Assembly (NCBI GenBank): GCA_028699085.1
Contig: JAQVVF010000002.1
Span: forward strand, 68,557 to 132,556
Length of the DNA: 64,000 nucleotides
Direction: 5' to 3'
DNA from: Patescibacteria group bacterium
GTDB taxonomy: Bacteria; Patescibacteriota; JABMPQ01; JAQVVF01
Positions 23,580 through 29,210 of the stretch are shown one piece after another (the stretch's first letter is position 1; every line of letters starts with the position of its first letter). Below the pieces are notes generated by a model. The model made no database searches. It saw nothing but the letters and a program-made list of their open reading frames with translations, and had not been told where the DNA came from. The translations under genes and the position numbers were made by a program.

Positions 23580-23717
23580 GATTTAAAACTTTCTTTATAT
23601 TTTTATATAAAAAGACACTCTGTCCAGACTGTCTTTTTAGAAAAACTTGATTATTTGATTATTATGATATAATAACAAAAATTAAATAATATGTCAAGTT
23701 TGCAACTTTTTATCACT

Positions 23718-23788
23718 TCGGGGACCCGGGAATCGAACCCGGTCTACATCCACCCCATGGACGCGTACTACCGGTATACTAGTCCCCG
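23718..23788 (-). tRNA. tRNA-Pro (anticodon GGG)
   Basis: Manual fold: acceptor CGGGGAC/GTCCCCG, D arm GTAT/GTAC, anticodon stem CGTCC/GGATG with loop AUGGGGU, T arm CCGGG-TTCGATT-CCCGG; 71 nt, CCA not encoded. Confidence 0.8.
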
Positions 23789-23901
23789 ACTTAAACATTA
23801 TTATATGCTTTAACAACCGCAAAATCAACAAAAAAAAAGAAGCTATATATAACTTCTTACATAAAAAAACAAAAAATATCATAGATCAAAATTAGAATTT
23901 T

Positions 23902-24555
23902 CTATTCGATTACTTCACATCTTATTGTCGGCTTGTTGCTCCATACGTACACCGCAGTAAGTGTAATATCAGCAACTGTCTCACTACCAACTGTTTGATA
24001 AAAACTAGTTTGGTACACATTGAAACGCAAAGAATCACTTCCTATAGACCTTTTGCTTCCATCATCTTCAATAATAAAACATTCGGAATCAACAAATTTA
24101 CTTTCTTTCCCATTGAGCGGAGCTTCTACTTTGACCTCATAACCACCAATCAATAAATTAGAAAAAGAATATGTCCCATCAAAATCTGGCGTATCAATTC
24201 CTTCATATTGGCAAAGAGGATTAGATCTACAAGCATCTATTAAATCGCTGTTATTGCCCTTATAGCTATACCGTATTCTCAGTTCCGTTTCAAAATCATT
24301 ATATTGCCCATTACATTCATGTTTATAAGTGTCTTCAACAAATACGCATTGTATTTTTCTACCTTCTTTCATGGCAGAATAAGGAATAACGCCTCCTCCC
24401 GGAAACCTGATATATATACTACCAGACACGCTTCCAAACTGATCTTCTGACAAAGTAATGGTTTGATTTTGACTCTGATCTTGTTCACAAGACAACAAAA
24501 CGCTTATCAAAACAAATATCACGACACTGAAAAATCGAGTCTTGTTCTCTAACAT
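23902..24555 (-). CDS. Putative lipoprotein, Cys-rich secreted
   Basis: Signal peptide ending LLSC (lipobox-like) from internal Met MLENKT; 6 further Cys. Confidence 0.45.
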   Translation of the reverse strand: MLENKTRFFSVVIFVLISVLLSCEQDQSQNQTITLSEDQFGSVSGSIYIRFPGGGVIPYSAMKEGRKIQCVFVEDTYKHECNGQYNDFETELRIRYSYKGNNSDLIDACRSNPLCQYEGIDTPDFDGTYSFSNLLIGGYEVKVEAPLNGKESKFVDSECFIIEDDGSKRSIGSDSLRFNVYQTSFYQTVGSETVADITLTAVYVWSNKPTIRCEVIE

Positions 24556-24891
24556 TCTCCCTCCTCTTTTGGGTTTCAACTATCACGAAATAATTTTCTA
24601 AAGATCTTTCTTTACATAAATTAATTTTCTTTAAACATTAATTTACATTACAACACTTTTCTATTTTGTCAATAAAAAAAGCCACATTGCTGTAGCTCTA
24701 CAAAAAGAACAAATTAACCACGAAGTTTCAAAAAATTCAATCTCTTATCTTTCGTTTTTCTCTGAATCGGAACTGTCAAAAATTTTTTCTTACAATGCTC
24801 AAAAGGAATACCTTCGCCTCGTCTTGTTTGATTTAACATAAAAACAGAATCTACCGACAAATGGTTGCTGAACAAAGTAATGAGCAATGCT

Positions 24892-25332
24892 TCAAAAAGT
24901 CTGCTTCCCATCTTGATCTCCTGTATCATCGAATATCCCTGAGAATCTGACCAAATCAGTCCTTAAATCACCAGGTCTCTTTCTTTCATCCTGCAATAAA
25001 AAATGGAAACCTTTGCCTTCAGATTCAACAGGATTACTATCATGTGGCAAAATCACCAAGTTCCAATTCTGAATACAGGTAGTATCTTGAAAAGGATTGA
25101 AATTCCTCAAGATCTCACAATCACATTTGATTTTCAAAGCCATGAAAAAAATGGTTACCCTTCCGAAATGAATTCTGCCAATTCCATTTTTTTGCATTTC
25201 ATTATATTCAGCGATCACTTCTCTGGTCTTTTCCAAACTATGAATTCCACCTTCACAACAACCAGCACGTCGCGCATTCAATTCTTGGTAAAAAGTTCCT
25301 ATCTGCATTTCACACCCCCTCCGATCCGACAC
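24892..25332 (-). CDS. GC-rich ORF B with CC...CDC...NWNL motif (paralogue of ORF A; possibly part of a frameshifted single gene)
   Basis: RAGCCEGG...KCDCEILRNF...CIQNWNLVI; composition clearly higher GC than surroundings. Confidence 0.3.
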   Translation of the reverse strand: MSDRRGCEMQIGTFYQELNARRAGCCEGGIHSLEKTREVIAEYNEMQKNGIGRIHFGRVTIFFMALKIKCDCEILRNFNPFQDTTCIQNWNLVILPHDSNPVESEGKGFHFLLQDERKRPGDLRTDLVRFSGIFDDTGDQDGKQTF

Positions 25333-25726
25333 AGCACTGCGGCATCATCGGATCGCATACGCCACGCACGTAATCTAAATTGATTACACCCAAATCACCA
25401 ATCGAAATTCCCTTTCGCACTCCCTTAATAGACAAATCCCACTGCTCAGACAGCCACCCATTGCCCATATTCAAACATTCCACCTGGCAATCGCATCTCG
25501 CTCCAATTTCCATCAAAAATTCAATCGCCCAATCAGCACGAATTGAAAACTCCAAAGACAGCTCCTGCACTCTGCTAAAAGAATGAACATCATTGCTGCA
25601 ACATTTACGGCCTTCGCGCATCAACTTTACAAAACCAATCAAATCCAAACTGCCTTTTTCAATAGAAAAACCAGAATCGTAAATAGAGCTCATTGGACTC
25701 ATTTCCTTTTCCTCCATCACCAGCAT
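25310..25726 (-). CDS. GC-rich ORF A with CC...CDC...QWDL motif
   Basis: REGRKCCSND...ARCDCQVECLNMGNGWLSEQWDLSI; overlaps ORF B by 23 nt in a different frame. Confidence 0.3.
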   Translation of the reverse strand: MLVMEEKEMSPMSSIYDSGFSIEKGSLDLIGFVKLMREGRKCCSNDVHSFSRVQELSLEFSIRADWAIEFLMEIGARCDCQVECLNMGNGWLSEQWDLSIKGVRKGISIGDLGVINLDYVRGVCDPMMPQCCVGSEGV

Positions 25727-25906
25727 AACTTTTGCTGGTTGCCTGCCAAAATTGGCAGGTCTTTTTTACCTTTTGGGCGTCAAATTTAAGAACAAAAAAT
25801 TGACATCAAAATGTCAAAAGAACATATCTACTAATATATACTATTTTAATATTTTGTCAATAAAAACAAATCACAAATCATGAACTGTATGTAATCTTAT
25901 AATATC

Positions 25907-27045: not shown

Positions 27046-28767
27046 TTAATCCATAAAAGAACAACTTGTCATTGCCGAATTAGATCGGCCATGAACAATA
27101 TAACCATCAGAGATTGGAATGCAAGTCACTGTATTTCCGCCAAAACTAGAGCTATTTGCATCATTATCAAGCCAATACCAAACACAAATTCTCGTCCGCA
27201 CATTTTCTTTGTCCGCCTTTTTATTAGCTGGATCAAAAATCATCATTTCATCAATTACCATCTCGCAATATTCTTGAGCAATAACAGTTCGTTGTTTTGC
27301 CATTTCCGCAAATGTTTTCACTAGCTTTCTCCATGTACTCCGCATCATCCCCTTACTAATTGCCACAGCATGTCCGCCAGCAGCTTTGTTATCACCACCC
27401 GACAACTTCAGCACTACTTCCGCATCCAATCTTTTTCTAGCCTGTCTAATTTTTACAAACCAATTTTCTCGACCAGACATCACAAAAATTTCTCGCCCAA
27501 CATTTTTAAACATTGTTACCATCTTTGTGGATTCAGGATCAGCCATTTTCCATCCTCTCGTTGACTTTGCCAAAGCCATCAAAGACTTCAAATCTCCCAA
27601 TCCTAAAAATATCTTTTTTCCTAGTTCCAAATCTTTTTTATCTCCCAACTCACGAAAACCAATCAGTTGCAAATTATTATCAAAAGCAAACCAATATTCC
27701 CGAATCTGCATATCTGAAAGTTCCTGCATTGATTCATTAGAATATTCAACGCCCTTCCAAATAAAATTGTTTCCTTTCCAAACAACTGTATAGGCAAAAA
27801 AATTTTTCAATTCAACAAAACCATCGCTTCCCAAAAATTTGATCCATTCTTCATTCAAACGCTCATCAAATAACCATGCCATCAATTCTTTATAATCCAA
27901 AAAAGTCAGCAGATTTGGATGCAGTAAAACTTTGCCATCAAAATAGGCATCAATAATCTTCTTTTCAATATCTGCTGCAAATACTGCCATCCTGTTTTTC
28001 TGTAAATCATTTTTGTCAATTTCAGAATATTCTTTGAAGACTCTTTCCACCAAATCAAGTTTTTTGCCTTTCAAATAAACTCCATCATCTTTGACTTCTG
28101 CCAGAAAAGATATCCCAAACAAAAAAGTCAAACCAAATTCTTTTCCGTATTCTTCAAACAGCTTTGTCAAAGCCTGCTGTTCCGGACCATAACCATCGCG
28201 CCAAGGAGTCAAAAGAATTCCCACATTTCCGCCATTTGGCAACAAATCATGGATAGCTTCGACATACTTTTTGGCAATTGGCTCAAAAAATTTTTTGTCA
28301 GGGAAAAAATTACGCGAAATAATATCAATTACTGCTCCATAACCAGAACCAGTTGCACCCAAAGTAAATTCATTAATCTTCAATCCTTCAGCAGTTCTGA
28401 TTGCATCAATCCGAATTCTTTTTGCCAAAATTACGTTTTTTCTTTCCAATTCTTTTTTCCAAATCTCAATCTGCAATTTTGACCGACCGCAACACAAATC
28501 CTGCCACAGCCAAGAATATTCGCCATTGCTTGATCTCCTCGCCAAATCAACACAACCTCTCAAAAATCTTGGAATCAGATCTTCAAGCCTTTTCAAAGTT
28601 GCAATCTCTCCACAAGTCAAAGCATAAGTTTCCAGCCCAATTCTTGCCGTATAATTTTTTGGCATAGTCCCAATTTTTCCCCAATAAAGACCTTGTTCCA
28701 AATATTCCTTTTCCATTTGCCTACCCAAATCATCATAATCAAACAGCTGTCTGCTCGTTCCCTGCAT
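27046..28767 (-). CDS. Large (573 aa) hypothetical protein with atypical codon usage
   Basis: Long ORF, protein-like composition, G/C-ending codons unlike neighbouring core genes; no family recognised. Confidence 0.5.
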   Translation of the reverse strand: MQGTSRQLFDYDDLGRQMEKEYLEQGLYWGKIGTMPKNYTARIGLETYALTCGEIATLKRLEDLIPRFLRGCVDLARRSSNGEYSWLWQDLCCGRSKLQIEIWKKELERKNVILAKRIRIDAIRTAEGLKINEFTLGATGSGYGAVIDIISRNFFPDKKFFEPIAKKYVEAIHDLLPNGGNVGILLTPWRDGYGPEQQALTKLFEEYGKEFGLTFLFGISFLAEVKDDGVYLKGKKLDLVERVFKEYSEIDKNDLQKNRMAVFAADIEKKIIDAYFDGKVLLHPNLLTFLDYKELMAWLFDERLNEEWIKFLGSDGFVELKNFFAYTVVWKGNNFIWKGVEYSNESMQELSDMQIREYWFAFDNNLQLIGFRELGDKKDLELGKKIFLGLGDLKSLMALAKSTRGWKMADPESTKMVTMFKNVGREIFVMSGRENWFVKIRQARKRLDAEVVLKLSGGDNKAAGGHAVAISKGMMRSTWRKLVKTFAEMAKQRTVIAQEYCEMVIDEMMIFDPANKKADKENVRTRICVWYWLDNDANSSSFGGNTVTCIPISDGYIVHGRSNSAMTSCSFMD

Positions 28768-29036
28768 TTTTTTCTCTCCTGCCTACATTTTTGTAGGCCC
28801 TGGTTGTAAAGAACAATCAAAAACCGGCTTTTAGAGCCGGTCTTTGCACAATATAATTTCTTTAAAAATTATCTTATATAATACAAAAATCGACTCATAA
28901 AAATGAAATGATAATGCCATGAATAAAATTTAAATTGTTGACTGATACTTAACATATATATACTTAATTGCTTATATTCGTACGATTAGTTGCAGTTGCA
29001 GTTGCATTCGCAATATTAATAAGATGAAAACAAAAA

Positions 29037-29063
29037 CTGGCCCAGATATTGAGCCAGCTTTTT
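29037..29063. terminator. Bidirectional terminator hairpin in 443-bp intergenic region
   Basis: A-run, CTGGC-ccagatattga-GCCAG, T5; A/T runs on both sides. Confidence 0.5.
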
Positions 29064-29210
29064 AAAAAAATTATTTAAAATTTATACAATAAAAAGTCGA
29101 CTCAATAATCTTGAATGCCAGTAATGTGTATAAAATTGTCGGCTAATATTTTTCATAATAATATATTATATAACACCTACATCTTTTGTCAATATAACTT
29201 ATCAACAGGC

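Follow-up and report, generated by a model that had tools for sequence, protein, structure and literature searches.

DUF2695 (PF10905) is an uncharacterised prokaryotic domain of about 53 residues. In its genuine members on Priestia, Rossellomorea and Rhizosphaericola plasmids, the domain lies at the C-terminus of proteins of 150-185 amino acids (aa). In the literature it appears only as an unexplained annotation, and one paper found it recurrently next to cyclodipeptide synthases (PMC5767969). Here we describe a cassette of three small open reading frames (ORFs), ORF-A, ORF-B and ORF-C, on contig JAQVVF010000002.1 of a Patescibacteria group bacterium. The window, i.e. the whole stretch of DNA that was analysed, comprises 64,000 nucleotides (nt), and the positions of the cassette features within it are listed in Table 1. 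Judged from its sequence, the cassette is a self-contained three-gene operon in a Saccharibacteria-like chromosome of the candidate phyla radiation (CPR), with its own promoter and terminator. We give an even chance to a reading in which ORF-A and ORF-B encode a co-translated, zinc-stabilised pair of DUF2695-like paralogues that serves as a binding module, together with the small basic product of ORF-C as partner.

At threshold, no model of Pfam, NCBIfam, PHROGs or PADLOC was matched by ORF-A, ORF-B or ORF-C, and ORF-C also had no match among PDB sequences. The sole exception was a noise-level match to PDC-M02A (E 0.019, one of eight members). A first-pass annotation of this DNA had been unable to place the proteins in any known family. 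This holds for Pfam models at threshold but not for remote similarity, since three members of the family gave sub-threshold matches to DUF2695 at equivalent positions (E 0.0016, 0.0052 and 0.064). For a direct comparison, a DUF2695 consensus peptide was used in a tblastn search of a plasmid collection, which returned Priestia and Rossellomorea plasmid genes annotated as DUF2695. A second tblastn with the Rossellomorea domain as query added one DUF2695 sequence from Rhizosphaericola. The fetched sequences are genuine, scoring 30-60 bits against the family hidden Markov model (HMM). Alignment of our family (8 sequences) with the genuine domains (5 sequences) by hhalign gave a probability of 85.4% (P 5.8e-6 over 51 columns), both profiles being small, and full-length DUF2695 templates gave 53% (P 1.3e-4).

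The similarity extends to the order and spacing of the conserved residues. The DUF2695 pattern GC-x-H-T-L-x-Y-T-R-E-W-L … GG-x-CDCEV-L-x-N-V aligns with H-S-L-E-K-T-R-E-V-I … CDCEI-L-R-N of ORF-B. The motif C-x(n)-H…C-D-C-E-[VI]-x-x-N is found in the same order, with C18, H23, C62, D63 and C64 (ORF-B numbering) invariant in all 8-10 members. CDC is followed by [EQ][VI], and N71 stands at the same offset (CDCEILRN in ORF-B, CDCEVLMN in DUF2695). Both families are helical and share, at similar spacing, Cys-x(1-5)-His-[ST]-[LF]-x-x-[TS]-[RK]-[ED], then about 25-35 residues, then Cys-Asp-Cys-[EQ]-[VI]-L-x-N. On the other hand, the proteins of the window replace the GG before CDC, and they are extended by a further helix at the N-terminus (MxxGTFxxL) and by a Trp-containing helix with a tail at the C-terminus. 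They also form a tandem pair, to which a 65-aa partner gene is coupled, and are confined to one CPR lineage. The family probably belongs to the DUF2695 superfamily as a divergent branch, although it does not qualify as a formal member. Should the remote link be correct, this superfamily would extend into reduced CPR genomes, in the unusual form of a tandem pair with a small partner downstream of a highly conserved operator-like site.

Relatives of the proteins were found in only six clusters among 1.84 billion representative proteins, using word-indexed searches and an exhaustive HMMER search of these representatives. Scans of genome and metagenome contigs gave nothing beyond the six clusters. 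The cassette occurs in about five closely related, uncultured lineages, namely the window group (L001-L003, L005 and L006), L004/L007, L008, L009 and L010. L007, a metagenome-assembled genome from NCBI, bears the label uncultured Candidatus Saccharibacteria. The unit of A, (B) and C is constant among the relatives and its flanks vary; in L008, it consists of an A-type gene and ORF-C only, ORF-B being absent.

By sequence comparison, ORF-A and ORF-B are true tandem paralogues, and a tandem duplication would be their origin. BLASTP aligned the two window proteins with an E-value of 6e-5, ORF-A (P0004) with ORF-B (P0003) of L004 with 3e-6, and the A-type protein of L008 (P0005) with P0003 with 3e-7. 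In a six-sequence alignment, F6, R13, C18, H23, E34, F54, C62, D63, C64, L67, N71 and W82 are invariant. With more distant members added, M1, F6, L10, C18, H23, F54, C62, D63 and C64 still are. An N-terminal helix with the pattern M-x-x-G-T-F-x-x-L is common to A and B. The shared architecture had previously been described as a CC pair followed by CDC and (Q/N)W(D/N)L. Paralogy and CDC are borne out, the last motif comes down to one conserved Trp, and the CC pair is not conserved as such, its first Cys being replaced by G in ORF-A of L004 and by Y in ORF-A of L010. The extra C-terminal cysteines of ORF-A are not conserved either. The ligand set is therefore Cys/His/Cys/Cys and not four Cys, within an invariant motif Cys-x(n)-His…Cys-Asp-Cys, and metal binding by this set is plausible. 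AlphaFold models, built from 6-8 sequences, predict the same five-helix core of about 75 residues for both proteins. The mean predicted local distance difference test (pLDDT) score was 66 for ORF-A (core 77-90) and 69 for ORF-B; the cores lie around 80-90 and the tails are disordered. Each protein would present this core with the DUF2695 signature Cys-x(n)-His … Cys-Asp-Cys-[Glu/Gln]-[Val/Ile], in which the Cys/His/Cys/Cys set may hold one structural zinc ion per domain.

Table 1. Positions of the cassette features in the window
Feature	Position	Strand	Remarks
Sigma-70-type promoter, TTGACA-16 nt-TATATT	25833..25860	minus	11/12 consensus positions; consensus scan
Leader palindrome TTGACATTTTGATGTCAA, then U6 tract	25794..25817	minus	just downstream of the -10 box
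Two leader hairpins	25741-25760 and 25719-25739	minus	inverted repeats just upstream of the ORF-A ribosome-binding site
ORF-A	25310..25702	minus	130 aa; best start ATG 25702 (MSPMSS…); probable DUF2695-like Cys/His protein
8-bp perfect inverted repeat, CGATCCGA…TCGGATCG	25322..25355	minus	last codons of ORF-A, abutting the ORF-B Shine-Dalgarno sequence
ORF-B	24892..25308	minus	138 aa in the window, 127-128 aa in relatives; paralogue of ORF-A
1-nt deletion	24938..24939	minus	relative to near-identical contigs L001, L003, L005 and L006 (the four readable there)
ORF-C	24714..24911	minus	65 aa; alternative upstream ATG at 24929; co-conserved with ORF-A and ORF-B
Intrinsic terminator	24678..24699	minus	9-bp stem, GCAA loop, T7 run; operon end; conserved in L004

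The junctions between the genes are compatible with coupled translation of separate proteins. ORF-A, whose relative P0001 is 95% identical, is preceded by a ribosome-binding site GGAGG at 25711-25715, eight bases upstream of its ATG. The ATG of ORF-B (relatives P0002, 97%, and P0003, 65%) stands one base past the ORF-A stop codon TGA (25310-25312). Its Shine-Dalgarno sequence GGAGGGGG (25315-25322) lies inside the end of ORF-A, six bases before this ATG. The string GGAGGGGG-YGTGAR-ATG, which contains the TGA-A-ATG junction, is kept in every relative contig that spans the junction. On five other contigs, gene callers called A and B as two separate genes, and the lone A-type gene of L008 (110 aa) is not an A-B fusion. 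The first-pass annotation had seen two minus-strand ORFs overlapping by 23 nt and had considered a single duplicated-domain gene with a frameshift. The ORFs exist as described, but the overlap arises only because the upstream GTG at 25332, which is not the best-supported start, was chosen for ORF-B, and therefore no frameshift is needed. A frameshifted or fused A-B gene is ruled out by the conserved TGA-A-ATG junction and the internal Shine-Dalgarno sequence in all spanning relatives. An 8-bp inverted repeat had also been pointed out at the junction. It is present (arms at 25322-25329 and 25348-25355) and predicted to form a hairpin in the mRNA fold. It is among the eight inverted repeats of 8 bp or longer that this 1.3 kb contains; its conservation is limited to the window group, and the L004 lineage lacks it.

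The third gene, ORF-C, and the conserved promoter and leader are parts of the unit that were absent from the earlier description. ORF-C has a hydrophobic N-terminus, a basic tail and the invariant C-terminus FLK[LI]RG. In all close relatives, the stop codon of ORF-B overlaps an in-frame upstream ATG of ORF-C (ATGA). In the window, the 1-nt deletion replaces the last 4 residues of ORF-B (…EDIR) by an alien tail of 15 residues, and the ATGA overlap is lost; the deletion could be a real polymorphism or an assembly error. ORF-B is also irregular on two of the other contigs: in L010 (1509-1724) it ends early, at 71 aa, just past the CDC motif, and in L002 (10395-10500) it is broken by an N-gap.

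Transcription would start at the strong sigma-70-type promoter and pass through a leader with a palindrome and a U-tract, probably a repressor operator or an attenuator. ORF-A, ORF-B and ORF-C would then be read with translational coupling (TGA-A-ATG; ATGA in relatives) up to the intrinsic terminator. The same promoter is found upstream of the ORF-A genes in L004, L008 and L010. The palindrome is unique in the 64 kb (0.03 occurrences expected by chance), and TGACAT-N3/4-ATGTCA occurs once, at the same place, in 10 of the fetched loci. The 84-nt block of promoter and palindrome shows 91-95% identity among L004, L008 and L010 and about 77% identity to the window; the remaining leader reaches only 33-50% among these three. 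In contrast to the promoter block, ORF-A protein identity to the window is about 31% in L004 and 44% in L008. The palindrome and U-tract, as an operator-like site or a weak hairpin-plus-U attenuator, point to a regulated promoter. The first of the two leader hairpins persists in other lineages, where its sequence differs (CCTGCCA/TGGCAGG versus CCGCCA/TGGCGG). Compared with 200 shuffled versions, the leader folds better (z = -2.7), and 2 of them fold as well.

These observations bear on the possibility that ORF-A, ORF-B or both are small DNA-binding autorepressors acting via TGACAT-N3/4-ATGTCA, which would make the cassette a regulatory switch and not a conflict module. Its position directly after the -10 box, its uniqueness in the window and a conservation unmatched elsewhere in the cassette would fit such a site, and the proteins are small and predicted to be all-helical. 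However, no helix-turn-helix or other DNA-binding family was detected in scans of the A/B family, and a regulator working on an almost invariant operator would not be expected to fall to 31% identity. Moreover, palindrome and U-tract could equally be an RNA attenuator, or the palindrome could serve a regulator not linked to the cassette, for example the TrpR/YerC-like protein of the adjacent gene in L008 and L010. We regard an autorepressor as unlikely.

The promoter of the next gene follows directly after the operon terminator. This gene (23902-24579, minus strand) encodes a 225-aa lipoprotein-like product with the lipobox LLSC and weak matches to β-sandwich domains. Its promoter (24662-24675) has an exact 14-mer, TTATTGACAAAATA, in common with the promoter of the A-B-C cassette. 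With up to two mismatches, this 14-mer occurs 20 times in the window, compared to 5 expected occurrences.

No gene of the neighbourhood evolves faster than ORF-A. When the window is compared with L007, protein identity is 96% for both the GT4 glycosyltransferase and NDK, 86% for the ATP-grasp protein, 74% for the M20 peptidase, 73% for the lipoprotein-like protein, 62% for a 573-aa protein and for ORF-B, 58% for ORF-C and 31% for ORF-A. The ratio of nonsynonymous to synonymous divergence (dN/dS, ω) relative to the L004/L007 lineage is 0.18 for ORF-B, 0.26 for ORF-C and 0.44 for ORF-A (the latter at about 31-32% identity). For ORF-A, dN reaches 0.85 between the window and L007; the corresponding values for NDK are a dN of 0.02 and an ω of 0.03. 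Rapid divergence is centred on ORF-A, in a locus that stands out locally as a hot spot for changes in protein sequence. The 573-aa protein (27046-28767, minus strand), encoded upstream of the M20 peptidase in relatives and adjacent to NDK, was not matched by any Pfam, PHROG or PADLOC model.

The highest GC content of the window is likewise that of ORF-A. A GC-rich islet of about 1.1 kb had been noticed at first sight, with 33 G+C counted in the 60 nt at 25321-25380. Sliding GC and codon-usage profiles confirmed the anomaly as real, but the islet is narrower and centred on ORF-A. In 300-nt sliding windows over the whole 64 kb, the mean GC content was 0.316 ± 0.042, with the maximum of 0.473 in the one starting at 25211. 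Sliding windows of 393 nt with a GC content of at least 0.42 were found only within about 25074-25790. ORF-A has 44.5% GC compared to 31.6% (z = 3.4; 0.18% of the sliding windows are equally high); ORF-B has 37%, ORF-C 34% and the whole 1.1 kb only 39%. The excess resides mainly at synonymous sites. The GC content at third codon positions (GC3) of ORF-A is 0.48, compared to 0.227 ± 0.051 in 60 ORFs of the window (+5 standard deviations), and ORF-B follows as the second highest with 0.32. From the amino acids of ORF-A and the codon usage of its neighbours, a GC3 of only 0.29 is predicted. The GC peak of the 20-kb locus of L007 is likewise ORF-A, and GC3 of ORF-A is 0.44-0.48 in two lineages whose synonymous sites are saturated. 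The odd codon usage has therefore outlasted the saturation of synonymous sites. GC richness here consists of atypical G-ending synonymous codons in ORF-A that are kept in the sister lineage. Over most of the window, plus-strand GC skew is strongly negative (about -0.2 to -0.45), and nearly all genes up to about 40 kb lie on the minus strand. The skew flattens to near zero over about 40-54 kb and is negative again beyond.

Divergence and composition together raise the question whether ORF-A is a weakly constrained, decaying or very young copy of minor function, so that only ORF-B and ORF-C would count, with its GC excess and divergence resulting from relaxed selection or a past foreign origin. 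Its ω of 0.44, the 31% identity, its variable N- and C-termini and the atypical codon usage would fit such a history, as would the 1-nt indel at the 3' end of ORF-B in the window and the truncation of ORF-B in L010. However, all five lineages have kept ORF-A as an open frame that retains its ribosome-binding site and the invariant C/H/CDC motif, and the A-type gene is the copy that is retained in L008. Relaxed selection under AT-biased mutation should furthermore lower GC3 and not hold it at 0.44-0.48. A decaying ORF-A is accordingly given slightly less weight by us than an autorepressor.

A further idea, already put forward in the first-pass annotation on the basis of a supposed four-Cys spacing, is that the cysteines perform redox or metal-cluster chemistry. 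This could involve an Fe-S cluster or thiol-disulfide exchange, for example in the manner of the HdrB-type CCG domain. Cys is indeed enriched (6.2% in ORF-A and 3.6% in ORF-B, compared to 1.4% background). The arrangement 'CC … CxC' with a spacing of about 40 residues, present twice in tandem, superficially looks like two CCG domains, which in HdrB, GlpC and LutA are likewise cysteine-rich, tandemly duplicated and spaced by roughly 35-40 residues. CCG domains have the motif CxnCCxnCxxC, whose four to five Cys bind Fe-S. In the family described here, only three Cys and one His are invariant, which is a structural-zinc pattern and not a CxxC redox pair, the motif being CxC. No match to CCG (PF02754), to an Fe-S family or to a thioredoxin-type family was obtained, even at E <= 10, and the HdrB-type CCG domain was rejected for this reason together with the CxC motif and the unconserved first Cys of the CC pair. 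We consider redox or cluster chemistry improbable. The SWIM zinc finger uses the same ligand types (C, C, C and H) but, as CxCxnCxH, has them in the order opposite to that of the window proteins and in a β-rich fold. It was rejected as well, since its motif does not fit and no HMM match supports it.

In AT-rich genomes, islands of high GC content frequently turn out to be RNA genes, and long stop-free antisense stretches exist here. The notion that the islet encodes a structured non-coding RNA, or lies antisense to a gene on the plus strand, is nevertheless effectively refuted: there is no Rfam match even at E <= 5, the RNAs of ORF-A and ORF-B do not fold better than their shuffled versions (z +1.1 and +0.6; antisense -1.2), the plus-strand ORFs have no Pfam match, and the sense frame is stop-free with the lowest pN/pS. 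Among the six frames across ORF-B, only the annotated one is stop-free in both genomes; with the dN/dS values given above, this marks ORF-A and ORF-B as genuine coding genes.

The genes flanking the cassette are chromosomal (FtsA, FtsZ, ComEC, NDK and glycosyltransferases). Upstream, an M20 peptidase gene is found in the window and the L001-L007 contigs, and a TrpR/YerC-like gene with a 128-aa gene in L008 and L010. A RiPP (ribosomally synthesised and post-translationally modified peptide) or graspetide cluster involving the nearby ATP-grasp and M20 genes was considered and rejected: the position of the ATP-grasp gene varies and M20 is absent beside the cassette in L008 and L010, and therefore neither gene is linked to the cassette. 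A phage or defence origin was likewise discarded, with no PHROG or PADLOC support and no viral relatives of the cassette in IMG/VR.

The surrounding region is variable in several respects. The sister contigs L001 and L002 agree with the window as far as the 3' end of a tRNA-Pro gene (GGG, 23717-23789). Past this gene, both (L001:11905-20393) encode a large serine recombinase, a DnaG-type zinc-ribbon protein, an N6/N4 methyltransferase and genes without assigned function. This putative element integrated at tRNA-Pro of L001 and L002 is absent from the window, which carries the ATP-grasp gene there instead. The interval between NDK and the 573-aa gene (28768-29210, compared to L005:2874-5195 and L007:2246-6431) also differs in gene content among close relatives. 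It includes the pair of a TrpR/YerC-like and a 128-aa '…HWSH' gene as well as PNP and HAD genes, and thus represents a plastic chromosomal region.

Under the preferred reading of a DUF2695-like pair with a small basic partner, A and B would be made in fixed proportion and might assemble together, perhaps with C, to act as a binding module and not as an enzyme. Several points weigh against it. The DUF2695 gathering threshold of 25 bits is missed by ORF-A (13.9), P0004 (17.4) and P0005 (19.0), and ORF-B gave no match. DUF2695 itself has no assigned function and no PDB structure, so that the link explains little. No recognisable toxin, nuclease or secretion gene is adjacent to the cassette, neither PADLOC nor PHROG gives support, and viral relatives are missing. 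The cassette is found only in a few related uncultured lineages, where shared gene order may reflect common descent, and it does not show the patchy, mobile distribution that is typical of toxin-antitoxin modules.

As to function, our tentative preference is for an antitoxin- or immunity-like role of the pair, whose binding target would be either the small basic protein encoded by ORF-C or an external one. The fast divergence of ORF-A, its duplication in tandem and the operator of autoregulatory style would all be explained by such a role; the guess is drawn from architecture and evolutionary behaviour and not from homology. A weak hint by analogy comes from a genuine DUF2695 gene on the Priestia plasmid pMLY91_4, which might have an immunity-type role, lying in an array of small genes with Imm8, WapI-like, YxiJ and DUF3885. 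Ten neighbours of this gene were scanned and contained no further immunity families, and this immunity-island context is a single locus from a distant phylum. More specifically, and with a clearly smaller chance of being right, the cassette may be a lineage-specific conflict module of Saccharibacteria, in which a basic ORF-C effector would be checked by diversifying zinc-stabilised DUF2695-like proteins under an autoregulated operator. In epibiotic bacteria, divergence hot spots often mark genes of conflict with hosts, phages or competitors. The conflict module, if real, would also provide the first functional assignment, as antitoxin or immunity protein, for the DUF2695 superfamily. Nothing points to new enzymatic chemistry or to a broadly distributed system; the cassette is a narrow, lineage-specific set of small genes.

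Among described systems, type II toxin-antitoxin operons and orphan immunity-gene arrays invite comparison. The cassette differs from them in that none of its components matches a toxin, antitoxin, immunity or defence family, it appears to be vertically inherited and not mobile, and toxin activity is only conjectural. On the other hand, it resembles them in that its small genes are coupled in translation, the stop codon of one overlapping or adjoining the start codon of the next, in the palindrome at the promoter and in the faster divergence of the upstream gene compared to the downstream one. Tandem duplication and atypical composition are further similarities, as is the position within a plastic region, beside a tRNA gene apparently used as an integration site in sister genomes.

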